Source: an uncultured Phycisphaera sp. (GTDB lineage: Bacteria > Planctomycetota > Phycisphaerae > UBA1845). Taken from it: a stretch of DNA of 64,000 nucleotides. Below, one piece after another: positions 3,259 through 55,340 of this stretch. Position 1 is the stretch's first letter; every line of letters starts with the position of its first letter. Under the pieces are notes generated by a model. The model saw only the letters and a program-made list of their open reading frames with translations, ran no database searches and had not been told where the DNA came from. The position numbers and the translations under genes were made by a program. Location of the stretch: positions 100,008 through 164,007 of the forward strand of contig CAZAMB010000005.1 of the NCBI GenBank assembly GCA_964486335.1. Reading direction: 5' to 3'.

Positions 3259-4077
3259 TTAATGGTCCGGCGCTTTCAGTTTCGTGACCGCCGGTTCAAA
3301 GGGATTCCCACACTCGGAACACCGATGTTCGGGAAGTCCGAACAGGTCATATCCGCACTTGTTGCAGTGCCCCGGCGGGTAGATCGGGCGATAGCGGTTT
3401 CGAAAAAACACGACCACGGAAATCACGGCGAATGGTACAAGCAAAAAAGGGAACACGGAATAAGAAACGTAATAGAGGGCATCTCGCAGCGTAACGATTC
3501 CGCGAAAAAACGCCAAATGCCACCGCCATGAACTGAGGCACAATCCCAACAACGCAAATGCACTATTCCATGCGACCGATTTGATCGAACGAAGCGGCCA
3601 ACAAAGTATACCGAGTCCCAACGTATAAACTCCAAGAAAGAGACTCGTCAATAGGTACGTATGAATGTCGAGTAAGAGTTGTCCCGCCGCGCCGCTGACG
3701 ACGCGAAATCCGACACCATACAAGAACGCCGCGAGAAGGCGACGTCGCCACAGGAACATCAAGGCCGACCGGGTGAATCTCCCAAGACGCGCAAAGAGGC
3801 GCAGATAAACCGATTCGTCGAACATGCCGGGAAAGTGATTGGAGCGACTCTCGATCCCGCGTCGACGGGCTTCGGCTTGCAAAATGCCGAGTATTTCTTG
3901 CGAAAGATCAGACGGATCGGCCAACCCGCGCACCACGTCGTCGTCGGTTGCATTTCGCCATGCCTCGACGAGTTCGCTTTGACTTTGGTCGCCTATCAAA
4001 GTCTGACCCATTCGGCGTCGGCATCGGTACTTAACGAGGAAGTGCGGCACCGATTCTCTCTTCGTTTGGTACGCCAT
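3259..4077 (-). CDS. Hypothetical multi-pass membrane protein with C-terminal zinc-ribbon
   Basis: 272 aa. Several hydrophobic segments are present. The C-terminus CNKCGYDLFGLPEHRCSECGNPF is a CxxC...CxxC motif. No family recognised. Confidence 0.6.
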   Translation of the reverse strand: MAYQTKRESVPHFLVKYRCRRRMGQTLIGDQSQSELVEAWRNATDDDVVRGLADPSDLSQEILGILQAEARRRGIESRSNHFPGMFDESVYLRLFARLGRFTRSALMFLWRRRLLAAFLYGVGFRVVSGAAGQLLLDIHTYLLTSLFLGVYTLGLGILCWPLRSIKSVAWNSAFALLGLCLSSWRWHLAFFRGIVTLRDALYYVSYSVFPFLLVPFAVISVVVFFRNRYRPIYPPGHCNKCGYDLFGLPEHRCSECGNPFEPAVTKLKAPDH

Positions 4078-13045: not shown

Positions 13046-13217
13046 TCCGTCAGGATGCCAAAAAATGGCCCGATGATGGGGCCTCGGCGAGGTAACGCGA
13101 AATCCATGCGCGTTCAGCAAAGAGCCTATCTCAAGTACAAGGCGAGCTGCGAACTTCAGTTCGCGCGGACTTCCAAAGGGCGATGATGCACTAGGCTCTA
13201 AAGACAAGCGGCGGCTG

Positions 13218-14687
13218 ATGATCATTTCAACTCTTTGGTGGTTGTGCTTTTGGACGGCGACGGGACTCTGCGTCGGGAGTTTTCTCAACGCCGTGATCTA
13301 CCGCATTCCTCGCGGAAAGTCGTTGCGCGCGCCGCTTTGGTCCGCTTGTCCGTTCTGCCGGTATCGCATCGCATGGTACGACAATATTCCCATTGTCAGC
13401 TTTCTGTTGCTGGGCGGTCGTTGCCGGAAATGCAACGTTCCGATTCCGACGCGATACCTGGTGATCGAGGCGGTAACTGCCGTTGTCGTCCTCATGCTGG
13501 TGGATGCCTTTCTGATCGGCCAGGTTCGCGACGGACTGAGTCGCAGCGAGTTCGGATTGACCGACCGCCTTTCATTCGACTGGCCGATTCTCGTGGCTCA
13601 TATCGTGCTCTTTGCCTGTTTGTTCGCCATGTCCGCGATCGACCTCGAGCATTACTGGGTTGATATTCGCTTCACTAACCTCGTCGTCGTCGCCGGGTTC
13701 GCGTTTCACGTGCTTTGGACGCCGCCGCACAGTCGGACATGGCTTCGGCCTTCCGACACACTTGCTGTCATGTCGTTGTGTGCACTGACCGGACTCGCCC
13801 TAGTCTGGATCGTCCTGTGCTGTCGTCCGCAAGTAGACCCCGAGGATTTCGGTGAACCCGTTGAACACGCCGATCCTTCGCCGCCCGCCGACGACCGCGC
13901 ACCCGGTTTGCCGCCTCCCTCGCTGTCGGCGCCGTCGCGCACCGGAGGATGGATCGCGTTGTTCGTTTTGGCCGCGCTCGTCGTCGTGATGTTCCTCGCG
14001 GAATCCCATGTAGCCCCGCTTCGGCATACGGGACGCGCACTGGCCCCGCTGGGTTTCCTGTTCGTATTGATTCTCTCACAGAGCATTTTGTCGCGCGATT
14101 CCGATCACGCCATCATGGAAGCGATCGACGAGGAAAGCGGAACGGCCCGTCGAATGGTCGCAGAGGAACTGCTGTTGATCGCTCCAGCCATTGTGCTCGC
14201 CCTCGTCGGATGGTGGATCATGTCCGGCGGCGAGTACGTCGCCCGCATCTCCGAGTCCCTGCACGCCTCAATGCAAATCGATGCTCTGGCGCTCTTTCGT
14301 CGATGGGCTCCGTTGGAGGGATTCTGCACGGCCGCTACCGGATACGTTGTGGCCGGTGCGCTGGGCTGGGCGGTGCGCATCGCATTCACGTTGTTGTTCG
14401 GCAAGGAAGCTTTCGGAACCGGAGATATTCATTTGATGGCCGCCGCGGGATGCGTCGCCGGCTGGCAAGTCGTCCTCCTCGGCTTTTTCCTGACGTGCGG
14501 GCTGGCCCTTGCCGGTTGGGTCATCGCTCTTCCGTTCAAACGAACGCGAGCACTACCCCTGGGGCCTTGGCTCTCTTTTTCGTTCTTGATCGTGACGATA
14601 TTCTATCAGCAAATCATGCAATGGCCGATGCTTGCGCGCGGACTCGAAACGGCAGGGTGGCTCCTTGGCTACCGAACTTCGTCTTAA
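13218..14687 (+). CDS. pilD: Prepilin peptidase (A24 family) with a long internal insertion
   Basis: 489 aa. The N-terminus has CPFCRYRI...CRKCNVPI (a zinc-binding module). The putative catalytic Asp residues lie in SAIDLEHYWV (D142) and GTGDIHLMAAAG (D403). Confidence 0.82.
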   Translation: MIISTLWWLCFWTATGLCVGSFLNAVIYRIPRGKSLRAPLWSACPFCRYRIAWYDNIPIVSFLLLGGRCRKCNVPIPTRYLVIEAVTAVVVLMLVDAFLIGQVRDGLSRSEFGLTDRLSFDWPILVAHIVLFACLFAMSAIDLEHYWVDIRFTNLVVVAGFAFHVLWTPPHSRTWLRPSDTLAVMSLCALTGLALVWIVLCCRPQVDPEDFGEPVEHADPSPPADDRAPGLPPPSLSAPSRTGGWIALFVLAALVVVMFLAESHVAPLRHTGRALAPLGFLFVLILSQSILSRDSDHAIMEAIDEESGTARRMVAEELLLIAPAIVLALVGWWIMSGGEYVARISESLHASMQIDALALFRRWAPLEGFCTAATGYVVAGALGWAVRIAFTLLFGKEAFGTGDIHLMAAAGCVAGWQVVLLGFFLTCGLALAGWVIALPFKRTRALPLGPWLSFSFLIVTIFYQQIMQWPMLARGLETAGWLLGYRTSS

Positions 14688-16835: not shown

Positions 16836-17957
16836 ATGAACTTTACCGGCTCCTTTCACGCAACCGACCGGCGTCATTCAGAACAGCCTGATCCGTATCG
16901 CGGACCCTTCGAACTCGATCGTCATCGCATCGTGGAATGCACGGCTTTTCGTAGACTCGATCAGAAGACCCAGGTCTTTGCCACCACGTTCCATGACCAC
17001 TTCCGCACGCGCCTGACCCACACGCTGGAAGTTGCCCAGATCGCAAGGTGTCTCGCCGCCAACCTCCATGCGAATGAACCGCTCTGCGAGGCCATCGCCC
17101 TTGCACACGATCTTGGGCATCCTCCGTTCGGCCATGCCGGAGAGGCGGCGCTCAACGAAGTCATGTCAAACCATGGCGGATTCAATCACAACGCCCATTC
17201 GCTTCGGGTTGTTGAGTATCTCGAGCATCCCTTTCCCGGCTTTCGAGGCCTGAACTTGACTTGGGCGACACTAGAAGGACTTCAAGCCCACGCCACCCGA
17301 TACGATCAGCCGAGCACCGATTCGACGACCTCCTCACTCTCCGCGCCGACCGAATTGGGTTTCGGTGCAGCCGGCCCGAATCGATCCCATCCCAAGGACG
17401 GCGTGTCGCTGGAGGCGCGGATCACGTCACTGGCCGATCGCCTTGCCTACAATCTCCACGACATGGAGGACGCGATCGGCGCGGGCCTATTGAAGCAGAA
17501 TGATCTGGAAAACCTTCCGATCTGGATGGATGCATTTGCGAAGGCGAACCGTGACAACCAGGTCAAAAGTATCTTCGCAGTCCGCCGCTCCGTATTGGAT
17601 GCGATGCTTGACGCCGTTTTGGCGGATGCAATCGCTGTTCCGAAACCGTTCACTGGTTTGTCACCTGAATGCGACGCGGAATTGACTGAACTCGAGGTTC
17701 TCTTGCGAGAACGCGTATACGGCAGTCCCGATGTCGCCCGCGCTGACACGGAGGCTCAGTCCTTGATTCAAAGTCTCTTTGCCGTTTACACGCAGGACCC
17801 GCTTCGGCTTCCTGATCGCTTCCAACGACGAATCGCCCAGCAAGGCCGACATCGAGTGGTCTGCGATTACATCGCCGGCATGACCGACCGTTTTTGCAAA
17901 GCCGAGGCAATAAGGATGTGCGTGACGCCGCGCACTCCAGACCGCTGCCCGGAATGA
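16836..17957 (+). CDS. dGTPase-like HD-domain triphosphohydrolase
   Basis: Motifs: FRTRLTHTLEVAQIAR...LAHDLGHPPFGH...GFNHNAHSLRVV. The C-terminus DYIAGMTDRF is typical of the Dgt family. The start is ambiguous between 16818 and 16836. Confidence 0.85.
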   Translation: MNFTGSFHATDRRHSEQPDPYRGPFELDRHRIVECTAFRRLDQKTQVFATTFHDHFRTRLTHTLEVAQIARCLAANLHANEPLCEAIALAHDLGHPPFGHAGEAALNEVMSNHGGFNHNAHSLRVVEYLEHPFPGFRGLNLTWATLEGLQAHATRYDQPSTDSTTSSLSAPTELGFGAAGPNRSHPKDGVSLEARITSLADRLAYNLHDMEDAIGAGLLKQNDLENLPIWMDAFAKANRDNQVKSIFAVRRSVLDAMLDAVLADAIAVPKPFTGLSPECDAELTELEVLLRERVYGSPDVARADTEAQSLIQSLFAVYTQDPLRLPDRFQRRIAQQGRHRVVCDYIAGMTDRFCKAEAIRMCVTPRTPDRCPE

Positions 17958-42309: not shown

Positions 42310-42381
42310 GCGGGTGTAGCTCAGTGGTAGAGCGTCACGTTGCCAACGTGAATGTCGAGGGTTCGAGCCCCTTCACCCGCT
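42310..42381 (+). tRNA. tRNA-Gly (anticodon GCC)
   Basis: GCGGGTG-TA-GCTC-AGTGGTA-GAGC-G-TCACG-TTGCCAA-CGTGA-ATGTC-GAGGG-TTCGAGC-CCCTT-CACCCGC-T. The cloverleaf was folded by hand. The T-stem has one G-T pair. Confidence 0.92.
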
Positions 42382-42489
42382 GTTCCTGACGCGCCGTACC
42401 ACGAAGCGACACAGGCGTGCAACCTTTGACTCCAACGCTAGTTACAGCGACCGATTCTCGGCTTTCCTAGATTCTCATTGCCTGGTCGC
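42336..42489 (+). repeat. Island direct repeat, left copy (tRNA-Gly anticodon arm to 3' end plus 108 nt downstream)
   Basis: Gap-free hand alignment with 53567-53720. The tRNA part is 41/46 identical and the downstream part is about 79/108 identical. Confidence 0.85.
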
Positions 42490-42557
42490 TTTTGCCAGAA
42501 AGTGACCGGAATGGACCGCAGTGGACGCCCATTCGTGCAAGGTCTAGTGCGAATTGA
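42396..42557 (+). pseudogene. Decayed copy of the 5' part of the island HTH gene
   Basis: In the frame equivalent to 53627, the translation is VPRSDTGVQPLTPTLVTATDSRLS*ILIAWSLLPESDRNG... The intact copy reads MPASDIAVQLLTPARVTTTDSCLSQVYISWSRFELSKRAG... An in-frame TAG lies at 42468-42470. Confidence 0.45.
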
Positions 42558-44055: not shown

Positions 44056-45465
44056 GTGCCATCGAAAAGTGTTTGGCTGAGGTTTTTCTGTGAAGGCCGT
44101 TGCCTTTCGAGGGCCGCGCTGGCGCGGTCGCTTGCGGACCAAGGCGTATCGGTCGTGGATCCTTTGTCAGAGCGCGAGTCCGGCCCCGGAATTGTCGTAT
44201 TCCAAATTGTTAATTCCGAGCTCTGTGAGCTGATGTCCAAAGTCTCATGTTGTGGTTCGGAACGAGTGCTCGCTTTGGCCGATACTCCATCTGTACTTAA
44301 AAAAGGAGACGTTTGGCGCCTTTTGCACGCCGGCGCGGCGGATGTATTTGATTGGGTGGAATCGGCCAATCCGGCACGGGAGATCGCGATCCGGTTGACA
44401 CGTTGGACCGAGGTCGACGAAATTGTCAAATCATCTCTGGTTCGGGAAAACCTGATTGGACATAGTCGAATTTGGAACGACCTCCTTCGACAAATCGTCG
44501 AAGTAGCGCGATTTTCCGAAGCCTCGATTCTGATAACAGGAGAGAGTGGAACCGGTAAGGAATTGATTGCCCGTTTGATCCATACACTCGATGCCCGGCC
44601 AGACAAAGGTGAACTCGTCGTGCTCGACTGCACAACGATTGTACCGGAACTCGCTGGAAGCGAATTCTTTGGTCACGAGCGTGGGGCCTTTACCGGAGCG
44701 ATTGTCGCACGTGATGGCGCCTTCGCGCTGGCGAACGGCGGCACGCTTTTCCTCGACGAAGTCGGAGACCTACCACGGACGTTGCAGGCGCAGTTGCTTC
44801 GCGTGATACAGGAACACACCTATAAACGTGTAGGAGGCAACCAATGGTGCCAGTCGCATTTTCGATTGTTGTGTGCCACGAACAAGGACTTGACGGTTGA
44901 GGTGAAGGAAGGGCGATTTCGCGCCGACTTGTACTACCGAATTGCAGATTGGACGATTCGATTGCCCCCACTTCGTGACCGTACCGAGGACATTCCCCTG
45001 TTGGCTCGACACTTCATCCAAGCCCATGGCCACCATCGGAGCGATTTCAATTCCGAAGTGACCGAGTATCTGTTGTCTCGGGACTACCCGGGAAACGTTC
45101 GCGATCTGAAACAAGTGGTGGCGCGAATGAGCCATCGACACGTTGGCCAGGGCGAAATCACCGTCGGAGCGATCCCGCCCACGGACCGGCCTCAGGCGGA
45201 GAGTCCGTTGGATAGATGGAGCGACAGAGTGTTCGAACTACCGGTTCGACACTCTCTGGCAGTTGGCGTGGGACTGAAGGAAATCGGCCGAATTGCCGAG
45301 GAGACCGCCGTTCAGATCGCTCTCGCGGAAGAAGGCGGAAATCTGCAGCGAGCCGCTCGACGATTGAAAGTGTCGGATCGCGCCTTGCAGCTCCGACAAG
45401 CCAACGGACGAGGACCCAAGGAAGCGCCCAGCGACCCCGTCATCGAGGGACGGACGCCTGCGTAG
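44056..45465 (+). CDS. Sigma-54-dependent transcriptional activator (bacterial enhancer-binding protein)
   Basis: 469 aa with a GTG start. The AAA+ core has GESGTGKE (Walker A), GGTLFLDEVG (Walker B) and an intact GAFTGA loop (ERGAFTGA). The C-terminal Fis-type HTH is GNLQRAARRLKVSDRALQLR. The N-terminal ~140 aa sensor domain is not assignable by eye. Confidence 0.9.
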   Translation: MPSKSVWLRFFCEGRCLSRAALARSLADQGVSVVDPLSERESGPGIVVFQIVNSELCELMSKVSCCGSERVLALADTPSVLKKGDVWRLLHAGAADVFDWVESANPAREIAIRLTRWTEVDEIVKSSLVRENLIGHSRIWNDLLRQIVEVARFSEASILITGESGTGKELIARLIHTLDARPDKGELVVLDCTTIVPELAGSEFFGHERGAFTGAIVARDGAFALANGGTLFLDEVGDLPRTLQAQLLRVIQEHTYKRVGGNQWCQSHFRLLCATNKDLTVEVKEGRFRADLYYRIADWTIRLPPLRDRTEDIPLLARHFIQAHGHHRSDFNSEVTEYLLSRDYPGNVRDLKQVVARMSHRHVGQGEITVGAIPPTDRPQAESPLDRWSDRVFELPVRHSLAVGVGLKEIGRIAEETAVQIALAEEGGNLQRAARRLKVSDRALQLRQANGRGPKEAPSDPVIEGRTPA

Positions 45466-46282
45466 CCGGCGAAGGTTGGAGCCATGGCTCATTTGGCTCG
45501 ACCATCGGTCTGGAGGGCTTGGCGCCAAAGTGAACGGAACCGACGGGGTTTCGCGAGACTTGGGAAATGAGCCTCAGGATATTCCCGCCGAGAACAAGTC
45601 GCGCGTACTGGGGCGACATGCCAAGCGCTCGAACCTTGGCCAACTCGACGCCAGGATGCAACCAAGGACCGTCGGAACCAAACAGAATTTTTCTTGCGCC
45701 GGCACGATGAAGCGCTTCTTCGAGCAGATCGAACCTTCTTACACCGGACGTATCGGTATGGACATTGGGGTAACGAGTCAGTATGTCCAGGAACGCTCGC
45801 TGGGCGCGCCAGTCGTCTGCGAAGCTGCCCAGATGCGGGATAATGAAATTGACGCCGGCGTATTCCGAAGCGATCAACTCTACCTGCGAGACCTCGCCCA
45901 TCACATCGTAGAGGATGGGCAATGACCAGCGTTTCGCGGCTGCGCAAACCTCTCTTGTGATGGAAGCGTTGTACCGATGGACCTTGATTCCGCGAAATCC
46001 ATGCACGTGCACCGCCTCGTCGATCATCGCCTGCATTCGACCCCGGTCGGCATGTGGGTGGACGAAGGCAAAGCCGATAAAACGACCATTGGATTGAGCG
46101 ACAATTCTCGCCACTTCGCGGTTGGCGGTTCGGTAGTCGGAATGAAACGCAGGGAAGAGTACAGTTCGGCGAATCCCGGCCGCGTCGGCCCGAGCAATGT
46201 ACTTCCCAAGCGGCGCAGCGGTGTCCCAGGGACCCGTCAATCCGTCTCCGCGACCGGCATGGCAATGGCAGTCAATGATCAT
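45440..46282 (-). CDS. Amidohydrolase_2-type (TIM-barrel metal-dependent) hydrolase
   Basis: 280 aa. MIIDCHCH starts the protein, with IPHLG and ILFGSDGPW further on. It is the last gene of the island operon. Its 3' end overlaps the EBP gene 3' end by 26 nt (convergent). Confidence 0.82.
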   Translation of the reverse strand: MIIDCHCHAGRGDGLTGPWDTAAPLGKYIARADAAGIRRTVLFPAFHSDYRTANREVARIVAQSNGRFIGFAFVHPHADRGRMQAMIDEAVHVHGFRGIKVHRYNASITREVCAAAKRWSLPILYDVMGEVSQVELIASEYAGVNFIIPHLGSFADDWRAQRAFLDILTRYPNVHTDTSGVRRFDLLEEALHRAGARKILFGSDGPWLHPGVELAKVRALGMSPQYARLVLGGNILRLISQVSRNPVGSVHFGAKPSRPMVEPNEPWLQPSPATQASVPR

Positions 46283-46442: not shown

Positions 46443-47447
46443 TTATAGAATCGCACCCGATCGAGATTTGAACCAGGGGGTCAACCGTCTGGCGCCGTCC
46501 AGATTCAGTTCGGTGTGAATGTGATTCGTATGCGGACTAGGGCCAGCATAGTTTCCGTCCTTTCGGCCACTCCGTGAACCATTCCATTTGATACGATTCC
46601 AAATAACGAACTGAATTCCGATGGCCGAAGCATTTTGTACAAGCCAGTTCGCTATCGGATCTCCGACGGCGGAGTTTGCTTGGTGATCTATTTCGCGAAT
46701 CATGATGTCGAGAGCGCGCCCCACCCCGTGAACGGAGGTTTCTGACGGAGTTGCTGAATTAAATCGACATGCATAACCACCGACGGAATCAACGCCTGGA
46801 AACGTCCTTCGTATATAGGTTCCCAGTTCGGCCGCGCCAGGTGTAAACGTGCCGCTGCAATTGCGTCCATTGGCCCACGGTGGAGGACTATCATAGCGAA
46901 CAAACTGTGCTTCGCCGGCAGCGCGAACGTCGGCGGGTAGCACCCATTTCTCGCTCGAAATCGACGGGCTCGGAGAATCCGGCATACTTCCCGTGAGTCG
47001 CTCCCAGGTCCGTCTGCCGACAATGCCGTCAACCGTCAAGCCGTTCGCTCGCTGAAATGTCAGTACCGCCGCTCTCGTAAGGGGACCGAAGGCCCCATCC
47101 TCAGAAAGGCGGCTTTGTCCGGGCGCGGCGTTAGTCGCAATCCAAGCATTAAGTCGTCTTTGCAATTCGATGACAGCCGCTCCGCGCGAACCGGTTCGCA
47201 GCGTTGGCCAAGTTGGTGACTCGTTGAGAATCTCGTCGAACGATAACTCGTCAAGACCAAGTTCATGACCAGGGGACTGCTCAATTTGAAGTACACCGGG
47301 CAAGATCTCATCCAGCTCGGTTGAAAATGGCGATTGATGATCCAGCGGCAGGATGATGTTGCGGCCATGTCGAAACCAGCGGCCGCCTCGTTTTGCACGC
47401 AGGCCACTTGTTTTTCTTACAGAAGATGATGCGCGCAGTCTGTTCAT
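46443..47447 (-). CDS. Peptidoglycan-binding-domain protein with C-terminal LAS-like metallopeptidase-type motifs
   Basis: Start at the ATG at 47447, which makes an ATGA overlap with the upstream stop. The PG_binding_1 repeat is GSRGAAVIELQRRLN...DGAFGPLTRAAVLTFQRANGLTVDGIVGRRTWERL. The C-terminal part has SVHGVGRALDI and HTNHIHTE. The catalytic assignment is inference. Confidence 0.75.
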   Translation of the reverse strand: MNRLRASSSVRKTSGLRAKRGGRWFRHGRNIILPLDHQSPFSTELDEILPGVLQIEQSPGHELGLDELSFDEILNESPTWPTLRTGSRGAAVIELQRRLNAWIATNAAPGQSRLSEDGAFGPLTRAAVLTFQRANGLTVDGIVGRRTWERLTGSMPDSPSPSISSEKWVLPADVRAAGEAQFVRYDSPPPWANGRNCSGTFTPGAAELGTYIRRTFPGVDSVGGYACRFNSATPSETSVHGVGRALDIMIREIDHQANSAVGDPIANWLVQNASAIGIQFVIWNRIKWNGSRSGRKDGNYAGPSPHTNHIHTELNLDGARRLTPWFKSRSGAIL

Positions 47448-48604
47448 GACCTGACTCCTTGGTTTAGGGACAAAGTGGAACCGTAAGATTCCCCGGCGGC
47501 TGAATTCTCGAGTTTCAATTGGCGTGCGCGCGCCAGCGCTTGGCACGCTGAACTGATGTCAATTGGGTTGTGATCGGCGTTGATCAGAAAGGCGATGTTT
47601 GCCCGTGCAGGTCTTTGAACCGAAAGCAGTACCGTTTGGACCCCCATACCCCTAAGCCGACCGGTCATTCTCCTTGCTTCGCCTGACGACCGAAACGACA
47701 ATATCTGCACAGGGAAGAGTCCCGGAGATGGCGTGAATCCTGCCGATCGTGTTCCGGCACGAAATCGTCGTACATTGGAGAGGAGCTGCGATCGTCGTGA
47801 GTTGCCGATGCGCTCGTTGGCCGTCAGCGCGTTCGTGGCAGCCCTGATGGACGCCTGGGAAGGCGGACTGCAATGAACTCGAGTCTCGCTGCGCGTTGCA
47901 AACTGCTCGACAATGTCACCGCGACTCGACAGAGCGGCCACCGGCGCTCCGAATCCCTTGGCCAGGGAACTGATCAAGACCAATTCCTTCGCGCGAACGC
48001 CCCACCACTGGGAGCTTCCGCCTCCGCCTAGCCCATACGGCATTGTTCGCGTCGGTCGCGCGCCAAGAACGCCAAGCGCTTGAGTGTCATCTACGACAAC
48101 AAGACCCTTCACGGCTCGCATCTGACGAAGATAGCTTGTAAGAGGTGCAACCCGTCCGCATCGCATACAGGAACCATCAACGACAACCACCGGACGTGAT
48201 GCAGGCCCGCCAGCATCCTGAAGTGATCGACGCAATGACGAAGGGCAATAGTGCCGAAACGTCTGGACAGACGCGCCGCGCGCCGCCGCCCGTTCCAGTC
48301 CCCAGCGTCCGATGGGATAAAGTCCGCTATCCATGAAAAACCGTGCCCCTTCGTCGGCGAGCATGCCGAGGAAGTCCCAAAACAAGTGTAACGTCGAAGT
48401 TCCAAGCAAAGCCGCTTCACAGCCTTGCAGGTCGGCCAACAATTGGGCGACCCGCTTCGCCTCAGCTGACTCATCAAGTGCCGCAGGTCGGCCGGTCGTC
48501 AACTGCTCCCACGATCCCAGCGCCGAACTCGGGTGCCGCATGCCCAGATACTGGGCCGAGGTAAAGTCAAGCACTGGATGATTTCCGTCAACGACCTCTG
48601 CCAC
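47444..48604 (-). CDS. PLP-dependent class I/II aminotransferase-fold enzyme, alpha-oxoamine-synthase-like
   Basis: 386 aa. LDFTSAQYLGM, VVDDTQALGVLG and SLAKGFGAPVA (putative PLP Lys) parallel the AONS/serine-palmitoyltransferase motifs. Confidence 0.7.
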   Translation of the reverse strand: MAEVVDGNHPVLDFTSAQYLGMRHPSSALGSWEQLTTGRPAALDESAEAKRVAQLLADLQGCEAALLGTSTLHLFWDFLGMLADEGARFFMDSGLYPIGRWGLERAAARGASVQTFRHYCPSSLRRSLQDAGGPASRPVVVVDGSCMRCGRVAPLTSYLRQMRAVKGLVVVDDTQALGVLGARPTRTMPYGLGGGGSSQWWGVRAKELVLISSLAKGFGAPVAALSSRGDIVEQFATRSETRVHCSPPSQASIRAATNALTANERIGNSRRSQLLSNVRRFRAGTRSAGFTPSPGLFPVQILSFRSSGEARRMTGRLRGMGVQTVLLSVQRPARANIAFLINADHNPIDISSACQALARARQLKLENSAAGESYGSTLSLNQGVRS

Positions 48605-50261
48605 CCGTCAATTGCGATTGCAGCCGTTGGCTTAATAGCACTGAAGGCATGGTCGCATTCACCATTCCACTCACCGGCTGAGCTGTCAGATCAACACCCG
48701 TAGCCGCGCGGTAAGCATGGAGGTAACCCTGAATTTCCGGCTTCCAATATCGAGCCCATGTTCGAGCGTGTTCCTGGTCTGTTAGGACATTCCAGTTTCC
48801 ATACCGGATCGAGAGCAGAATCCGTTCTCCGAGGACGCCCAAATCGCGAAAATGGGTGACCGTTACGTCGCTCCAACCCTGAACTCGTTTCATCGCGTCC
48901 ACGCGGCCCATCCACGGTTCCGCATAGGGCACCATGATCCGAGTGCCGAGGAATTCGCGCATTTCGGGTCGGGACAACAACCACTGCTGCATCATCATCT
49001 CGACTCGCGCTGTCCACGGCAGATCCCCGAATTGATTGTGCGCCCCTTGGGCAAGCAGCAAATGGACTTCCTTTAGCGCGTTGAGAAGAGGGAACCCGTC
49101 GGAAATCACGGTCGTGTCCGAGTCTTCCTGAAAAAACACGGAGCTGCGATACAAAAGATCGTGAAATGCTTCGAGAAACTTTGAACGGTTGTCGGCCGGA
49201 CGCATGGTCGAAACGGCCTTGCCCGCGAGCGCCAGTCCGTAGTGGTGGCTATACTCATAGGCTCGGCGAGGAACCGTGAGGCGATGGACTTCGTCCTGGA
49301 TGTACCCCCAAAGAAAGTTGTTGAGTGGCCTCAGCGGATCGATTTCCAACTCGGCCAATGGGTCGCGACCTGCGCCGCGCCGTTTGTTCTGGAATCGAAG
49401 GCTGATGGCGTTCAATGTTTGCGCCAACATCCCTTCTTCGTGCCAATACGACCAGATCAGTTCCAGCAGGCATGGACAAGAAGATTTCGCGCAGAGGATT
49501 TTCCCGTCACAGAAGGCCGAGGTAGCCGTCTGTTCTCGCCAATTCTCACCGAAGGCAGCGGTTAGAATCGTGTTCAAGTAATTGATATCCTTCGTTCGCA
49601 AGTAACTCGCCAGCTTGTCGCTAATGTCCTTCAGGGTGCCGCCCGGCAATGGGAAGTCATCCTCCAGACGTTTGACTTCAGATCCGGGGTCATCCTTTTC
49701 ACCCCATCCTTCGGTCTCGGCGCATGCGCATGGATCGCAATTACTCTTTTCACCTGCTTCTTGTTGTTTCTGAGCAGATGCGCCTTCGCGTGTTGTCGAT
49801 TCCGGATCGTCGGGTTTACGATAACAGGGATCAGGCTTTTTCTTTTCGGGGTCCAGAAACTCATCAGGATGCATTCCCTTTTGAAACGGCCCGCATGTGC
49901 AGCCGCAGCGGATGAGCAAAAACGTCTCCGTGGCCGTCTTCAAAAGGTCGTAGGCGTCCATGCCGTGGATGCAGGGTTCCTTGCTCAAACTTTCTCGCAG
50001 CCTTCGTTCCGGGCAGCAGTCGGGATCTTTGGTGTCTTTGTCGCAGAGCACTCGATCAATAAACTTCGCGTATTCCGAGAACGATGTCCGTTCCGAAGCA
50101 GTCCGAATCCACATCCATAACGGATACGTGTCGTCCCGTTTGAGCGGGGATCTCGAAAGCGAAAAGGTGCCGGACGCCGGCTTGGCAAAATCGCCAGAAA
50201 CACTTACCTTGACTCCCTTCGCCAGCTCTTTACCTTCAACAATAATCTTTCCTTCAGCCAT
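48588..50261 (-). CDS. Hypothetical 557-aa protein, Cys-rich N-terminal half, no recognisable family
   Basis: This long ORF is in operon context. About 15 Cys residues lie in clusters (DCCPE, CGCTCG, CDPCAC, CAKSSCPC), all in the N-terminal half. The C-terminal ~285 aa contain no Cys. Confidence 0.8.
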   Translation of the reverse strand: MAEGKIIVEGKELAKGVKVSVSGDFAKPASGTFSLSRSPLKRDDTYPLWMWIRTASERTSFSEYAKFIDRVLCDKDTKDPDCCPERRLRESLSKEPCIHGMDAYDLLKTATETFLLIRCGCTCGPFQKGMHPDEFLDPEKKKPDPCYRKPDDPESTTREGASAQKQQEAGEKSNCDPCACAETEGWGEKDDPGSEVKRLEDDFPLPGGTLKDISDKLASYLRTKDINYLNTILTAAFGENWREQTATSAFCDGKILCAKSSCPCLLELIWSYWHEEGMLAQTLNAISLRFQNKRRGAGRDPLAELEIDPLRPLNNFLWGYIQDEVHRLTVPRRAYEYSHHYGLALAGKAVSTMRPADNRSKFLEAFHDLLYRSSVFFQEDSDTTVISDGFPLLNALKEVHLLLAQGAHNQFGDLPWTARVEMMMQQWLLSRPEMREFLGTRIMVPYAEPWMGRVDAMKRVQGWSDVTVTHFRDLGVLGERILLSIRYGNWNVLTDQEHARTWARYWKPEIQGYLHAYRAATGVDLTAQPVSGMVNATMPSVLLSQRLQSQLTGGRGR

Positions 50262-50285: not shown

Positions 50286-51614
50286 CTATGAGGCCCGTGC
50301 GATTGTTTTCTGTGTTCGACCGACGAAAACCCTGCTCCGCGAACAACGGACACAAGCGCCAAACGTGCTTCGAAGCGCCCAATGACTGAGCAATCCACTC
50401 ACGAGGCGACTCTCTTCAACCGGATTGAGGACGCCGTACGCTTTTGCTTGTCCCAATACGGCGAACACAAGCGACTCCGGAGCGGCCCGCAACTGTTCTG
50501 GAAATCGTCGCCAGGTCTGAAAGAGTCTCATTAGGCGATGTGGTTGCCGCTCCTCGACACCGAGGACTTCCCCCAGAGACAATCCCCTGAGAGACTTCGG
50601 TCGATGATGTGTCAACAACGCCACAAAACCAGGAATGCTTGCCTGTAACGCGTTGAATAGCGCGAAACGTCTTGGGTCAAGCTGCGTTGGCGGATAAAAC
50701 GCGTCCCACATCCTCGCGAAATGTTCCCATTGCGGATGTGGATAGAGCGCTTGTCCGACCGCACAACTGAGCTTGACCCTGATCCACGGGCTTGGGTGCG
50801 GATCGTCAAGGTTGATTCGAAAAACGAATCCACGCGGCAGACTGACTACACTCATCAATCCCATGGTGGACGTGATGCCCAACTTCGCCACGGACCAGAA
50901 GTCGGCAACAACCTCGGAAATCCACCGCTCCCAGGCCAGCCACGCAAACGCTTCTGCGCTCCCTTTCTTCCGCATTCCCAGAAGAATTGGCCGGAAGGAC
51001 GGAACCAGTTTCAGCAGTTCCGCTGCCTGATGACCGACCTCGTGGACCAAAGACGATGCGATTCCGCTGCCTACCATTCTCTCCCGCGGCACGCGGATAA
51101 TGGCAACGGGATTGCGCCCGCCCGTGGGCATCCGCGTTCGCGCCCGCCGTATCGCCGCGCCGGGTCCGCGGTCCAGGTAACAAATCACCGGCGGTTCCGA
51201 GTAGTAGCCGCCACCAAGGTGCAATGCATCGGCGGCAAACGCATCCAGTCCGGATAGCCAGATTCCCGTTTCATGTTCGCTGCGTTGAGTGATTGCATCC
51301 GCAAACAGATCAAGATCCGAAAGGACGGCGTTGAACCGCAATCGGAGGAGTACGAATCGCCGCTGCGCTTCCTCGGCGGAGGACAACCGCCCATTCGAAC
51401 CCTCAAGCCACGCCAGAAATGCAACGACTTGTTCCCGCAAATTGCGTCGCCCTTGAAGCAAGTACCCGTCGATGGCTCTTTGCGCGGTTGAGGAAATCGC
51501 CGCGGCGGTTACCGAAGTGATTTGCAGCGCGAATGGCTTCACGATAGCCAGTCGTGTCAGCAGGGCACGGGCTTCCTGCGCAAGAAAACAAGTTGTGTTG
51601 GAACGCATGGACAC
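50286..51614 (-). CDS. Hypothetical 442-aa protein with HExxH motif (putative zinc metallopeptidase)
   Basis: The only motif recognised is SSLVHEVGHQAAELL. The rest is helical-looking sequence without a family I can name. Confidence 0.75.
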   Translation of the reverse strand: MSMRSNTTCFLAQEARALLTRLAIVKPFALQITSVTAAAISSTAQRAIDGYLLQGRRNLREQVVAFLAWLEGSNGRLSSAEEAQRRFVLLRLRFNAVLSDLDLFADAITQRSEHETGIWLSGLDAFAADALHLGGGYYSEPPVICYLDRGPGAAIRRARTRMPTGGRNPVAIIRVPRERMVGSGIASSLVHEVGHQAAELLKLVPSFRPILLGMRKKGSAEAFAWLAWERWISEVVADFWSVAKLGITSTMGLMSVVSLPRGFVFRINLDDPHPSPWIRVKLSCAVGQALYPHPQWEHFARMWDAFYPPTQLDPRRFALFNALQASIPGFVALLTHHRPKSLRGLSLGEVLGVEERQPHRLMRLFQTWRRFPEQLRAAPESLVFAVLGQAKAYGVLNPVEESRLVSGLLSHWALRSTFGACVRCSRSRVFVGRTQKTIARAS

Positions 51615-51620
51615 GACTTG

Positions 51621-52289
51621 TCAAACTCCCAACAGAATGATGCGCCGACCGCGGCGAATCCAGCGACCGCTCTGCCCCGCACTCGAAGTGCTCGCCAGCC
51701 CAGTGTTCATGAGGCCTGGCGCATGACGTTGAGCCGCGGCGGCCAGGGCCGACTTTGCGACGATTCGGGGATCAGTGGTATGTGGGGATGCGGCGGCGTG
51801 CTGAGCAGCGGCGCCGGCCAAGCGAACGAATCGTCGGGCGATTTCAAATTCCTGATCTTCGCCGCTGAGGCCCTCAAATTCCAAGCCAAACAGCTTGCCG
51901 GCCGCGGATCCGGCGGCACTTCCAAGCGCCGTTCCGACACCGGGGATCGGGATGAGTGACCCCAGGGCGCCTCCGGCAATCGGCAGAACCTTCTTGGCGA
52001 TGCCTTTGAGGATTCCGCCAAGCGGACGGAAAACGCGAGGAGCGATGCGCTTAATCCCCTTCCAGGCGCGCTTGAACAATTTGCCGAGGAATTCATCGAT
52101 TTCCTGGTCGCTCGACAATGTGAGCAGTTCGGAGGCGAAATCAACTTCTTCGTCCTGCGTAAATGGTCCCTCGCCGGTCCCGAAATCTCCAAATTCTTCG
52201 AAGACTTCAAAATCGCTCGTTTCACCGCCGAAACCATCGGTTTCCCCGGTGTCTTCGAAATACGTCTGAGTCTGGTCTATGTCGTGCAT
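51621..52289 (-). CDS. Hypothetical 222-aa protein: acidic N-terminus, cationic Gly-rich segment, C-terminal GRWIRRGRRIILLGV tail
   Basis: Residues 1-69 have no Lys or Arg and about 22 Asp/Glu. Residues 70-107 have 11 Lys/Arg and no acidic residues (KLFKRAWKGIKRIAPRVFRPLGGILKGIAKKVLPIAGG). A GxxxG-rich stretch follows. It is a paralogue of 52302..53126. Confidence 0.8.
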   Translation of the reverse strand: MHDIDQTQTYFEDTGETDGFGGETSDFEVFEEFGDFGTGEGPFTQDEEVDFASELLTLSSDQEIDEFLGKLFKRAWKGIKRIAPRVFRPLGGILKGIAKKVLPIAGGALGSLIPIPGVGTALGSAAGSAAGKLFGLEFEGLSGEDQEFEIARRFVRLAGAAAQHAAASPHTTDPRIVAKSALAAAAQRHAPGLMNTGLASTSSAGQSGRWIRRGRRIILLGV

Positions 52290-52301: not shown

Positions 52302-53126
52302 TTAAATGCCAAGTGCTACGATGGTGTGTCCCGTACGCATCCACCTGCCGTTACCGGGCCGATGAATGGCATAACTGATCCTTGATTCATCCTCGGTTTG
52401 GTCTTCCTCAGGTGCGACAGGAGGCTTGTTGCTTATGCCGAAACCTTGGTCGATCGAATCCTGAATGACGCTTCCACAATGTTGGGCACATGCCGCACAA
52501 TCGCACTCGATTGGCTCCACGGGTTCCGGCGCGACACCGGCGGCCGAACGTGCCCCACCATTGCTCGATGACGACGGAAAAGAAGATGGCATGGACGTTT
52601 GCGCAGGCCGTGTTCCGCTGTCGGTCGGAGGAAATTCCGGCCCATGGGATGGCTTTCCTGTGCGATGCCGCCATCTCCGTTTGCGTCGAAGCTGCTCGCG
52701 AAGAACGCGGAGTGCTGTTCTAATGGCAGGCAAAGCAGCATTTCTCGCGTGTTGTGTACGAGACAGCCGTCTCGCCAACCGACCTGCCAATCGTCCAAAC
52801 CGAACAGCTCGACGTGCTCTCTCAAGGTCCTCTTCATCCGTTTCGAACCCCTCAAGACTGCCATCAATGAACTCCCGAAATTGAGCGTTCAAAGACTCTG
52901 ACGGATCGCCCATGGGCGACGACGCGATGAAGGGTACCCGGCGAATGCCATCAATTGCGCTCTGTACTTGCGGCGTGATGAACTTGGCCAGACTATTCGT
53001 CGTTGAAGTGAGTGACTCCCCGCATTTGCCTAATGTCGCGAGCACAGCTCTGGCAATCTCGTTGCCACTGACCGCTCCTAGCAGGTCAATTGCCAGTTCT
53101 TCTTCGTTTTTTTGGCGATCGTACAT
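52302..53126 (-). CDS. Hypothetical 274-aa paralogue of 51621..52289 (tail NGRWMRTGHTIVALGI)
   Basis: It shares three segments with the downstream gene. Start region: EEELAIDLLGAVSGNE vs EVDFASELLTLSSDQE. Middle: EEDLERARRAVRFGRLAG vs DQEFEIARRFVRLAGAAA. C-terminal tail as in the call. The start is moved to Met 53126 because a sigma-54 promoter lies inside the 5' extension of ORF 52302..53291. Confidence 0.7.
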   Translation of the reverse strand: MYDRQKNEEELAIDLLGAVSGNEIARAVLATLGKCGESLTSTTNSLAKFITPQVQSAIDGIRRVPFIASSPMGDPSESLNAQFREFIDGSLEGFETDEEDLERARRAVRFGRLAGRLARRLSRTQHARNAALPAIRTALRVLREQLRRKRRWRHRTGKPSHGPEFPPTDSGTRPAQTSMPSSFPSSSSNGGARSAAGVAPEPVEPIECDCAACAQHCGSVIQDSIDQGFGISNKPPVAPEEDQTEDESRISYAIHRPGNGRWMRTGHTIVALGI

Positions 53127-53182
53127 AGCACAATTCAATTGGATTGGACTCGCGCATGGGTCCGAACTCAGCTGTGAAAGAA

Positions 53183-53198
53183 AGCAAGTTCCATGCCA
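53183..53198 (-). promoter_or_regulatory. Sigma-54 (-24/-12) promoter
   Basis: The minus strand reads TGGCATGGAACTTGCT, against the consensus TGGCAC-N5-TTGCW. The GG and GC dinucleotides are at canonical spacing. The motif lies 56 nt upstream of the ATG at 53126. An EBP with GAFTGA is encoded in the same island. Confidence 0.6.
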
Positions 53199-53227
53199 GA
53201 AAAACTGGGCCAATAATGGGCATTCTG

Positions 53228-53243
53228 GCGAAGTGTACTTCGC
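53228..53243. promoter_or_regulatory. Dyad GCGAA-N6-TTCGC (candidate enhancer/UAS 1)
   Basis: GCGAAGTGTACTTCGC has 7-bp perfect arms around a 2-nt centre. It lies about 30 nt upstream of the -24 element. Confidence 0.35.
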
Positions 53244-53268
53244 AACGACTGATGAACGGTGCAATTCA

Positions 53269-53284
53269 GCGAATCGCGCTTCGC
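53269..53284. promoter_or_regulatory. Dyad GCGAA-N6-TTCGC (candidate enhancer/UAS 2)
   Basis: GCGAATCGCGCTTCGC has the same 16-nt architecture. It is 41 bp (about four helical turns) from the first dyad. Confidence 0.35.
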
Positions 53285-53566
53285 CGATCATTCTGTTCGC
53301 TGTTGTCCAGTGAACGAAACAGGCCGAGGTGTTATGGGATTCCGTGGCCTGTGGTCAATGGTATTGGATAAGGCAACGAATCACTCGTTTCGAGGTGAAT
53401 CGGACGTTTAAAGTGACGAATCCTGACTTGATCCTACTCGATTGCTCCAATGCTGGGATGAATACTCATTTAACAGATCGCAAATGGCTCTTGGAAAGAA
53501 ACGTGGAAGGGGTTTCCGCATTCTCCGTAACTCTTTGGTTTTGCGCGGTTTAGAACTCGCTGCGTT

Positions 53567-53612
53567 CATGTTGCCTACGTAAATGTCGAGGGTTCGAGTT
53601 CCTTCACCCGCT
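53567..53612 (+). pseudogene. tRNA-Gly 3' fragment (anticodon arm to 3' end), non-functional
   Basis: 41/46 identical to 42336-42381. The anticodon-stem and loop changes are not compensatory. The region 5' of it cannot form acceptor or D arms. Confidence 0.75.
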
Positions 53613-53720
53613 TTGTTTGACGCGCCGTGCCAGCGAGTGACATCGCGGTCCAACTCTTGACCCCAGCGCGAGTTACGACGACCGATTCTTGCCTTTCCCA
53701 GGTTTACATTTCATGGTCGC
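53567..53720 (+). repeat. Island direct repeat, right copy
   Basis: See 42336-42489. The offset is 11231 nt with no gaps over 154 nt. Confidence 0.85.
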
Positions 53721-53863
53721 GTTTCGAGCTGTCTAAGCGGGCGGGCGTCCCGTACAGCGGAATCCACCGCTTTATCAGCTACGACCGCGACCTGACCCTG
53801 ACAACGGCGTCACGGCTGGCCGACGTGCTGGGGCTGGAATTGCGCCCTGCAAAAGGAAAGTAG
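53627..53863 (+). CDS. Small helix-turn-helix protein (Xre/excisionase-like position)
   Basis: 78 aa from the GTG at 53627. FELSKRAGVPYSGIHRFISYDRDLTLTTASRLADVLGLEL is a typical HTH. It ends 8 nt before the integrase start. Confidence 0.55.
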   Translation: MPASDIAVQLLTPARVTTTDSCLSQVYISWSRFELSKRAGVPYSGIHRFISYDRDLTLTTASRLADVLGLELRPAKGK

Positions 53864-53870
53864 GTGCATC

Positions 53871-55340
53871 ATGCCGAGAGTATTCCGGCAAAAATACACG
53901 CAACCGACGGCAGACGGAAAACGAAAAACGCGACAAAGCGCTAAGTGGTACGTCGAGTACCGCGACGCCCAAGGCATTCGGCGTCGGGTTCCGGGGTACA
54001 CCGACAAGGGCGCGACCCAACAGCTCGCGGCGGAGTTGGAACGAAACGCGGAGCGACAGCTCGCGGGTCTGGTCGATGCCTTTGCCGATCATCGAAAGCG
54101 CCCTTTGCGGGAACACCTGAATGATTGGCACGGCGCCTTGATCGCACGCGGCGCGTCGCGCGATTATGCCGACTTGGTCAAGAGCCGAGCGACCAAGGCG
54201 CTGACAGGTTGCGGATTCGTTTTCCTTGCCGACGTATCGGCATCCGACCTGCAAGCCTATCTGAGCAGGTTGCGAAGCGACGGACTGAGCATTCAAACGG
54301 TCAATTTCTACCTGCAAGCGGTCAAGCAGTTTTTCCGCTGGATGGTTGCTGACCGACGAATGCCCGACAACCCGGTCGCGTACCTGCGCGGGGGGAATGT
54401 CCGAACGGATCGTCGCCACGATCGACGCGCACTCGACACTGATGAACTGCGATCGCTACTCGACGCTACGAAGAATGGACCGGAACGGTTTGGCATGAAG
54501 CCTGATGCGCGGGCAATGCTTTATCAGCTTGCGGTTGAAACTGGTCTGCGGGCCACCGAACTGCGAACGCTGACTTGGGATTGTCTGGACTTGGAAGGCG
54601 ACCTGCCGACGGTGACGGTCAAGGCCGGTTATAGCAAACACCGGCGAACCGATACCCTTCCTTTAAAGCCGTCTACGACGCAAACGCTGGCCCGCTGGAG
54701 CAACGAACTCGGCAACGTGGACCCAACGGCACGCCTTTTCAACATGCCGCCCAAGGCCGCGAAAATGCTCCGAGCTGATCTGGCCGACGCTGGCTTACCG
54801 TATGCCGATGCTGATGGGCGCGTGGCCGATTTTCATTCCTTGCGGCACACTTACATTTCCAATCTGGCCCGTGGCGGTGTTCATCCAAAGATCGCCCAAC
54901 AGCTTGCCCGGCATTCGACCATTACGCTGACGATGGATCGCTATTCGCACACGGTTTTGGGCGAGCTATCAGACGCACTGTCGGCCCTGCCGGAGCTGGA
55001 CGCCACGCCATTCGAGCAAGAATCGGTGAGAGCGACCGGCACCTGCGGCAACCCCCAAAAATGCTTACCGATTTCCTTACCGAAATCCTTACCGAAACGC
55101 GGTGCGCGGCGAGAGTTGTCCCATTCATCGGCGTGCAATGATCCAACGCAAACCGCGAAATTCGACCGGCAAGAAAATCCTATGAATATAGGTATTTCCT
55201 GCGCTTCCACGCGTGACGACGCGGGTGTGTTCGTGGAACAATCCCGACTGCGCCCGGCGGGATTCGAACCTGCGACCCCCGGTTTAGGAAACCGGTGCTC
55301 TATCCAACTGAGCTACGAGCGCAACAATCGGCTAGTATAA
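53871..55340 (+). CDS. Tyrosine recombinase / phage-type integrase
   Basis: 489 aa. It has an N-terminal SAM-like domain. The catalytic region has LAVETGLRATEL (Arg), HSLRHTYISNL (HxxR) and HSTITLTMDRYSH (His/Tyr). The last ~30 codons read antisense through tRNA-Arg. Confidence 0.9.
   Translation: MPRVFRQKYTQPTADGKRKTRQSAKWYVEYRDAQGIRRRVPGYTDKGATQQLAAELERNAERQLAGLVDAFADHRKRPLREHLNDWHGALIARGASRDYADLVKSRATKALTGCGFVFLADVSASDLQAYLSRLRSDGLSIQTVNFYLQAVKQFFRWMVADRRMPDNPVAYLRGGNVRTDRRHDRRALDTDELRSLLDATKNGPERFGMKPDARAMLYQLAVETGLRATELRTLTWDCLDLEGDLPTVTVKAGYSKHRRTDTLPLKPSTTQTLARWSNELGNVDPTARLFNMPPKAAKMLRADLADAGLPYADADGRVADFHSLRHTYISNLARGGVHPKIAQQLARHSTITLTMDRYSHTVLGELSDALSALPELDATPFEQESVRATGTCGNPQKCLPISLPKSLPKRGARRELSHSSACNDPTQTAKFDRQENPMNIGISCASTRDDAGVFVEQSRLRPAGFEPATPGLGNRCSIQLSYERNNRLV
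55249..55322 (-). tRNA. tRNA-Arg (anticodon CCT)
   Basis: The minus strand reads GCGCTCG-TA-GCTC-AGTTGGATA-GAGC-A-CCGGT-TTCCTAA-ACCGG-GGGTC-GCAGG-TTCGAAT-CCCGC-CGGGCGC-A. There is one A-C mismatch in the T-stem and one G-T pair in the acceptor stem. Confidence 0.85.

Follow-up and report, generated by a model that had tools for sequence, protein, structure and literature searches.

In a 64,000-nucleotide stretch of DNA from an uncultured Phycisphaera sp. (Planctomycetota), hereafter the window, we analysed a 102-bp region at positions 53183-53284 in which a sigma-54 promoter is preceded by two short inverted repeats (dyads). This promoter-plus-dyads unit is very probably the on-switch of an uncharacterised operon. 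With good confidence we propose that the region drives the seven genes g1 to g7 by means of sigma-54 and of an enhancer-binding protein (EBP), encoded at 44056-45465, that would act at the dyads. The motifs, their statistics, their conservation, the co-occurrence of the activator and the domains of the activator, on which this reading is built, were all read from sequence.

The promoter element, TGGCATGGAACTTGCT, runs from 53198 to 53183 on the minus strand. Its GG at 53197-53196 (-25/-24) and its GC at 53185-53184 (-13/-12) have the canonical GG-N10-GC spacing, and the motif ends 56 nt from the ATG at 53126. A first-pass annotation, made from the letters of the window, had described this -24/-12 element, its spacing and its distance from the ATG, and the coordinates were confirmed on the minus strand. 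No other exact match to the sigma-54 pattern exists in the 64 kb: TGGCAY-N5-TTGCW was seen once, against 0.12 occurrences expected from 1,000 dinucleotide-preserving shuffles of the window, both strands being counted. A scan of the window with a sigma-54 weight matrix, which the same annotation had proposed as a check, gave this site 17.0 bits, the highest score on either strand, the runner-up reaching 12.9 bits. Between 52900 and 53900 no sigma-70-like promoter and no terminator-like hairpin were found. Transcription is predicted to start near 53172, with a 46-nt leader ahead of the ATG at 53126.

Upstream of the promoter, the dyads GCGAAGTGTACTTCGC (53228-53243) and GCGAATCGCGCTTCGC (53269-53284) are 16 bp long each and lie 41 bp apart from start to start, exactly where the first-pass annotation had placed two GCGAA-N6-TTCGC dyads. 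The start of the proximal dyad is 45 bp from the T of TGGC. Exact copies of GCGAA-N6-TTCGC were seen three times in the window against 0.40 expected, and a fraction of 0.006 of 1,000 shuffles of the window reached three. Two dyads about 41 bp apart together with a consensus promoter within 100 bp and on the correct strand would be expected at a rate of about 1e-9 per window, a figure that is a product of shuffled rates and not a simulation. The third exact dyad of the window (13149-13164) is followed after 54 nt by the ATG at 13218, which opens a 489-aa open reading frame (ORF) matching no family. It was rejected as a second target, being without a partner dyad and without correctly spaced GG/GC nearby, and is probably a chance occurrence. 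Two loose dyad pairs at 17310/17350 and 24518/24560 were also discarded; their cores are mismatched and no sigma-54 site is in range.

The operon belongs to a cassette that recurs in distant bacteria. A genome scan, with one genome taken per species, gave 80 loci (L001-L080), drawn from at least 485 genome matches. About 13 phyla or classes are represented, ranging from Acidobacteriota, four classes of Pseudomonadota, Planctomycetota, Verrucomicrobiota, Chloroflexota and Nitrospirota to Desulfobacterota, Myxococcota, Gemmatimonadota, Methylomirabilota, Bacillota and Actinomycetota. Nearly all of them keep the gene order g2-g3-g4-g5-(variable genes)-g7 and a convergent EBP gene. A pair of NCGAA-N6-TTCGN dyads stands upstream of the first gene in 71 of the 72 loci with enough upstream sequence, the spacing being 41-42 bp in 61 of these 71, with variants of 21 and 31-32 bp. 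The 1.35 Mb of sequence in the loci hold 74 qualifying dyad pairs, 68 of which are at the upstream position of the cassette; the six found elsewhere compare with about 3.8 expected by chance.

The promoter was examined in the 65 loci with a dyad spacing of 40-44 bp, using random windows drawn from the same loci as the reference. The best sigma-54 score in the 184 nt that follow the pair reaches 12 bits or more in 82% of the loci versus 1.2% of the random windows, and 16.9 bits or more in 25% versus 0.06%. The sigma-54 promoter first proposed from the window is conserved downstream of the dyads in the related loci, both in position and in sequence. It also recurs in an independent locus outside the set, on a megaplasmid of Ensifer adhaerens (L082), where two perfect dyads 43 bp apart are followed, 58 bp beyond, by the promoter TGGCACGGAGCTTGCA (19.5 bits).

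In a stack of 24 tightly spaced sequences, information content is present only at CGAA/TTCG, twice, and at TGGCA/TGC. The consensus of the site across the loci is [C>G]CGAA[G>A]-N4-[C>T]TTCG[C>G]. The first-pass motif therefore stands in part: CGAAR-N4-YTTCG is the recognised core, whereas the outer G and C of GCGAA...TTCGC vary among loci. Arm positions 1 to 4 are CG, GC, AT and AT in 124-132 of the 132 sites of the same 65 loci, with zero compensatory pairs and a loop that varies freely. Arms that are fixed without compensatory change argue for base-specific recognition by a protein and not for a hairpin.

A few loci depart from the common arrangement. An acidobacterial locus (L058) has two dyad pairs (1872-1929 and 3346-3449), with TGGAACGACGATTGCA 47 bp after the second, and may contain two promoter modules in one cassette. 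Two loci from Gemmatimonadota with 72-73% G+C (L042 and L054) have perfect dyad pairs and, at the standard distance of 46 bp, only weak -24/-12 matches, TGGTATCGACCCTGCC and CGGCACCACGGGTGCC, which may represent promoters that have degenerated in genomes so rich in G+C. The cassette core g2-g3-g4 is present in Actinomadura sp. KC216 (L050), where neither an EBP gene nor a dyad with a perfect core was found, nor any sigma-54-like site near the operon. Actinomycetota are effectively without rpoN (PMC12316311; PMC3162934), and the cassette of this locus must be expressed by other means.

The protein encoded at 44056-45465, reported as a sigma-54 activator in the first-pass annotation, was confirmed as such by its Sigma54_activat domain (PF00158, E=1.1e-56) and its GAFTGA loop (GHERGAFTGA at ~44683). 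The AAA lid is present as well, and the C-terminus gives a weak match to a Fis-type helix-turn-helix (HTH). All 27 NCBIfam EBP models tried on the protein scored far below their cut-offs (RtcR 291 versus 650, NorR 266 versus 476 and NtrC 244 versus 559 bits). No Response_reg match was obtained at E<=0.01, and residues 1-125 (44056-44430) matched no Pfam family. With the AAA+ core and the HTH shared, the protein is an enhancer-binding protein that falls outside every named subfamily tested. By eye, its N-terminal domain contains a receiver-like LLxAGAxDVLxW segment, and FQ where about half of the relatives have FD. No kinase gene was found in the cassette and no second EBP in the window.

Full-length identity of the EBP across the loci is 47-63%. 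Among 52 sequences the HTH, GNLQRAAxRLGVTDRALQxRRA, hardly varies, in contrast to the variable N-terminal domain, as would suit a constant DNA target combined with signals that differ by lineage. The EBP gene and the dyad pair were found together in 52 of 53 judgeable loci, the gene being convergent with g7 and within 400 bp of it in 43 of 51. No other conserved DNA-binding protein was found in the cassette. The presence of the pair in nearly all loci, its rarity elsewhere, its co-occurrence with the EBP and the near-invariant HTH support the earlier proposal that the dyads are the sites of this protein, as we also predict.

The centres of the two dyads are four helical turns apart and would thus lie on the same face of the DNA. 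Enhancers are usually located about 100-150 bp upstream, with looping often assisted by integration host factor (IHF), according to a review (PMC7057263). The distal dyad, at -104.5, fits this norm and the proximal one, at -63.5, is nearer; for enhancers of EBPs the distance is a typical trait and not a defining one. The first-pass remark that the dyads are closer than is typical is correct by the same norm (PMC7057263), yet theirs is the commonest conserved geometry of the system. The distance from the start of the proximal dyad to TGGC is 45-48 bp in 27 loci, 56-60 bp in 14, 68-70 bp in 6 and 34 bp in 2, with a further, scattered class at 111-190 bp. The short classes give a Rayleigh peak at a period of 11-11.5 bp (R = 0.82-0.85; p ~1e-11, a nominal value uncorrected for shared ancestry). 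Several classes occur inside a single phylum or class (34, 45-47 and 56-59 bp in Acidobacteriota; 46 and 57-59 bp in Gammaproteobacteria), and the two dyads are spaced by 21, 31-32 or 41-43 bp, all multiples of about 10.5. Distances that change in steps of about 11 bp and spacings in multiples of about 10.5 bp imply a face-of-the-helix constraint, and the pattern points to dyads and promoter being held in helical register. This kind of constraint is classical for NifA and NtrC enhancers that have been moved close to promoters.

The spacer between the proximal dyad and the promoter contains the IHF consensus WATCAANNNNTTR in 13 of 61 loci, against about 0.15 expected. Whatever the distance of the enhancer, 12 of these 13 matches start 16-18 nt before TGGC; they come from several phyla and mostly read AATCAACAACTTA. 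An IHF-like site so near the promoter and the proximal dyad is unusual. No IHF consensus is present in the spacer of the window (53199-53227). A T-tract abuts the -24 box in the window and in L006, L045 and L038 (CCCAGTTTTTCTGGCAT). Both the IHF-like sites and the T-tracts may bend the spacer DNA.

From these observations we infer that the activator binds the dyads and forms a ring, that the spacer bends, where transcription begins and that rpoN is required, as set out in the following model. The 102-bp region would control the operon g1 to g7, from 53126 down to 45440 on the minus strand. The sigma-54 RNA polymerase would occupy the -24/-12 element at 53198-53183 as a closed complex that does not open by itself. 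EBP dimers would bind both CGAAR-N4-YTTCG dyads through the Fis-type HTH, and the bound dimers would nucleate an AAA+ ring whose GAFTGA loops touch sigma-54. ATP hydrolysis would then open the promoter, giving transcription from about 53172 and translation of g1 from Met 53126. An enhancer unusually near its promoter implies a constrained geometry; the distance between the two would shift across genomes only in steps of about 11 bp, and the short spacer may be bent by an IHF-consensus site or, in the window, by the T-tract. Sigma-54 regulons have been reported in Planctomycetota (PMC12316311), and the phylum of the source organism, together with its intact activator gene, suggests that rpoN is present.

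Several points weigh against this model. No RpoN box was found in a six-frame translation of the window, and the sigma-54 weight matrix is our own approximation of the published consensus. The proximal dyad is nearer to the promoter than the 100-150 bp norm (PMC7057263), the statistic for the phasing is the nominal one given above, and one locus (L072) has an EBP with a non-canonical dyad arrangement. Two other points bear directly on who binds the dyads: the HTH_8 match of the EBP stays below the Pfam threshold (17.7 versus 22 bits), and L016 carries the dyad pair and the promoter with no EBP gene in the 6 kb beyond g7, so that its regulator may be encoded elsewhere. They would suit a genuine sigma-54 promoter whose dyads are bound by a repressor, a nucleoid protein or an unlinked activator instead of by the EBP at 44056-45465. 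We consider this improbable, given that the EBP is the only conserved DNA-binding protein of the cassette, that EBP and dyads co-occur almost without exception and that, across phyla, HTH and half-sites are equally invariant. In addition, the EBP-less cassette of the sigma-54-less phylum (L050) is also without dyads, and tandem dyads on one face upstream of a -24/-12 element are the standard layout of an EBP enhancer.

The unusual closeness of the proximal site would also agree with dyads that are mainly negative or autoregulatory elements, for instance by holding inactive EBP dimers, with activation proceeding from solution or from another site; some EBPs do activate from solution at high concentration. 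Such a role is very improbable in our view, since the strict phasing of dyads and promoter is what is expected if a bound activator must face the polymerase, and the footprint is without any other conserved site. A third alternative is that the motifs arose by chance or reflect coding sequence or RNA structure. They do fall within the 329-codon ORF 52302..53291, and each dyad could form a 5-bp stem. However, the expected frequencies are far too low, the elements are conserved where the region is non-coding, the dyads are upstream of the predicted transcription start, and the fixed arms (124-132 of 132 dyads), with no compensatory pairs and a free loop, are not those of an RNA stem. Judged on these sequence comparisons, this explanation is effectively refuted. 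Activation by the EBP bound at the dyads is the reading that we retain.

The position of the promoter also bears on the start of g1. The first-pass annotation had held the annotated start at 53291 to be wrong and Met 53126 to be the true one. The longest ORF (52302..53291) contains the ATG at 53126 in its reading frame. Its first 55 codons, from 53291 to 53126, overlap with enhancer and promoter, elements that are non-coding in other loci. Between the -12 C and the first ATG there are often 57-68 nt in other loci, and for Met 53126 there are 58 nt. Met 53126 is thus supported as the start, whereas the 'annotated start' proved to be that of the longest ORF. No Shine-Dalgarno sequence was found ahead of Met 53126, unlike for g2. 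A tblastn match of the 329-aa ORF in a Gemmataceae locus (L015) was rejected as coding evidence: it begins exactly at the TGGC of that locus and is read as conservation of promoter DNA, not as a coding N-terminal extension. In 24 of 61 loci the first protein begins with MH[DN]IDRT. Exact look-ups in a protein collection found g2, g3 and g4, and none of seven g1 starts nor the 469-aa EBP.

Table 1. Features of the control region, the operon and the insertion, with examples from related loci (window coordinates unless a locus is named).
Feature	Position	Strand	Remarks
Sigma-54 promoter TGGCATGGAACTTGCT	53183..53198	-	17.0 bits, top score of the window
Predicted transcription start (+1)	53172	-	Rule: C of the GC element (53184) = -12
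Proximal dyad GCGAAGTGTACTTCGC, upstream activating sequence (UAS) site 1	53228..53243	.	Centre about -63.5 from predicted start
Distal dyad GCGAATCGCGCTTCGC, UAS site 2	53269..53284	.	Centre about -104.5 from predicted start
Spacer of 29 nt, proximal dyad to -24 box	53199..53227	-	Ends in CCCAGTTTTTC (T5 tract); candidate intrinsic bend
g1, first gene	52302..53126	-	274 aa when read from Met 53126, rather than 329 aa from 53291; C-terminus GRWMRTGHTIVALGI
g2	51621..52289	-	222 aa; N-terminus MHDIDQT, C-terminus GRWIRRGRRIILLGV; kept in nearly all loci
g3	50286..51614	-	442 aa; invariant HEVGH motif; unannotated family, >5700 homologs
g4	48588..50261	-	557 aa, all-helical; unannotated family, >4800 homologs at 50-67% identity
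g5	47444..48604	-	Homolog of BioF/Kbl-like pyridoxal-phosphate enzymes, weak match
g6	46443..47546	-	PG_binding_1 and endolysin-like C-terminal part; variable cargo position
g7	45440..46282	-	Amidohydro_2; last conserved operon gene
Enhancer-binding protein (EBP)	44056..45465	+	469 aa; convergent with g7, 26-bp overlap
Decayed direct repeat of tRNA-Gly 3' half and flank	53566..53724	+	Right boundary of the insertion
Cargo examples in other loci	L004 13552-15363; L012 11725-17067; L017 12731-19124; L021 15343-17289		
Loci with IHF-like match			L005, L007, L010, L012, L020, L029, L032, L040, L043, L046, L059, L068

The first genes of the operon encode small proteins. In the window, g1 and g2 end in GRWxRxGxxIxLG[VI]; in other loci one to three tandem genes (~210-260 aa) follow the promoter, and their products end in GRW[IV]RRGxxIxLxG[VA]. 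The BLASTP match between g1 and g2 is weak (E=0.035), and g1 is, to judge by its sequence, a divergent relative of g2. These tandem small proteins have an acidic N-terminal part, a cationic glycine-rich middle (in g2, FLGKLFKRAWKGIKR...GGALGSLIPIPGVG) and a near-invariant tail, the first copy often having a variant tail such as ...IVNC.

The relatives of g3 (>5700) and g4 (>4800), at 50-68% identity across phyla, are all named 'hypothetical', and no Pfam, NCBIfam, PADLOC or PHROG model was found for g1 to g4. PADLOC and PHROGs returned nothing for g1 to g5 and g7, and matched only the EBP, as a generic AAA+ protein (RtcR-type), and g6, as endolysin-like and PG-binding. An AlphaFold2 model of g3 had a predicted local distance difference test (pLDDT) score of 82 and no fold match in the PDB; that of g4, from a 20-sequence alignment, had a pLDDT of 41 and was unusable. 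Plasmid records of Rhizobium, Ensifer and Paraburkholderia that contain the cassette carry no annotation over it.

The EBP gene and the operon are located on an insertion of about 11.2 kb that extends from tRNA-Gly (42310-42381) to a decayed repeat (53566-53724), the rest of the window being chromosomal (ffh, miaB and others). This direct repeat, 159 nt long and 78% identical (region 42310-42493 versus 53566-53724), runs from the anticodon loop of tRNA-Gly to about 110 nt into the flank. A tyrosine integrase gene (53871-~55240) is found just outside the right repeat; it abuts tRNA-Arg (55248-55323) on the other strand, and its ORF runs on into the antisense of this tRNA. The Ffh protein encoded in the chromosomal part places the organism in Planctomycetota: it shares 91-93% identity with its nearest database relatives, of which those with a name (91%) are Planctomycetota bacterium MAGs.

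The cassette rides on islands and megaplasmids. The slot between g5 and g7 is occupied elsewhere by VanY, Amidase_2, 3D, PLD phospholipase and M20 peptidase modules, most of them joined to PG_binding_1 or OmpA domains, so that the variable cargo is predicted to consist of polymorphic envelope-degrading enzymes. Searches of the cassette with Pfam, NCBIfam, PADLOC and PHROGs revealed no component of type VI secretion or of any other known system for secretion or defence, and the literature searched, including published EBP-regulon reconstructions, held nothing relevant on the cassette or the dyad motif. As a tentative and still doubtful extension, the EBP, the dyad pair and the sigma-54 promoter might form the trigger of an undescribed mobile system, shared by many phyla, of envelope-lytic, bacteriocin-like or secretion type. 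The core of that system would be the g1/g2-type small proteins, the HExxH protein, the all-helical 557-aa protein and the BioF-like protein, with interchangeable peptidoglycan hydrolases and phospholipases as cargo. A gated lytic, bacteriocin-like or secretion function of the operon is offered as a hypothesis only.

What these results add is a sequence-defined enhancer, CGAAR-N4-YTTCG twice at about four helical turns, for an unnamed activator subfamily in about 70 independent genomes. The loci constitute a natural experiment on enhancer geometry in which the rules of short-range activation become directly testable. The switch also offers a handle on a widespread operon of unknown function, which could for example be turned on with a constitutive form of the activator to learn its role.

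The closest parallel is the textbook sigma-54 enhancer of enteric bacteria, that of NtrC at glnAp2. Both combine a -24/-12 promoter with two dyads for a dimeric activator with a Fis-type HTH, spaced by a whole number of helical turns, and an AAA+ activator that oligomerises on the enhancer, as predicted here. NtrC recognises TGCACC-N5-GGTGCA-like sites that are separated by about three turns and have their centres near -140 and -108, whereas those described here are CGAAR-N4-YTTCG, four turns apart and centred at -104.5 and -63.5. NtrC has a phosphorylatable receiver domain, unlike the present EBP, which has no receiver match and scores below the NtrC equivalog cut-off.

Other activators share particular traits with the system. 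NorR at norVW has three GT-N7-AC sites and a GAF/iron domain that senses NO, unlike the EBP, with two sites of another sequence, a sensor domain that matched no family and 266 bits against the 476 of the NorR cut-off. In both cases a dedicated activator is encoded beside its single target operon. Both also have short inverted-repeat sites near a sigma-54 promoter, all of which are needed for ring assembly in NorR (PMC2831303).

The IHF-assisted promoters of PspF and NifA differ from that of the window, whose spacer has a T-tract only and no IHF consensus. The IHF-like site 16-18 nt before TGGC in the related loci is far nearer to the promoter than the classical positions. An enhancer plus a bend before the promoter is common to PspF at pspA, NifA at nifH (PMC7057263) and, as predicted, the present system, with WATCAANNNNTTR in 13 of the 61 related loci. 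PspF has no regulatory domain, and the score of the EBP falls short of the PspF cut-offs.

VasH-type activators are encoded inside type VI secretion clusters. Like them, the EBP is a sigma-54 activator dedicated to a mobile cluster with cell-wall- or membrane-degrading cargo; unlike in their clusters, no type VI component was detected in the cassette, and the resemblance is one of logic only. Taken together, these comparisons place the regulatory logic (a sigma-54 promoter, an enhancer and an AAA+ activator) within the textbook, with no new mechanism. The activator subfamily, its site and its operon appear to be undescribed so far.

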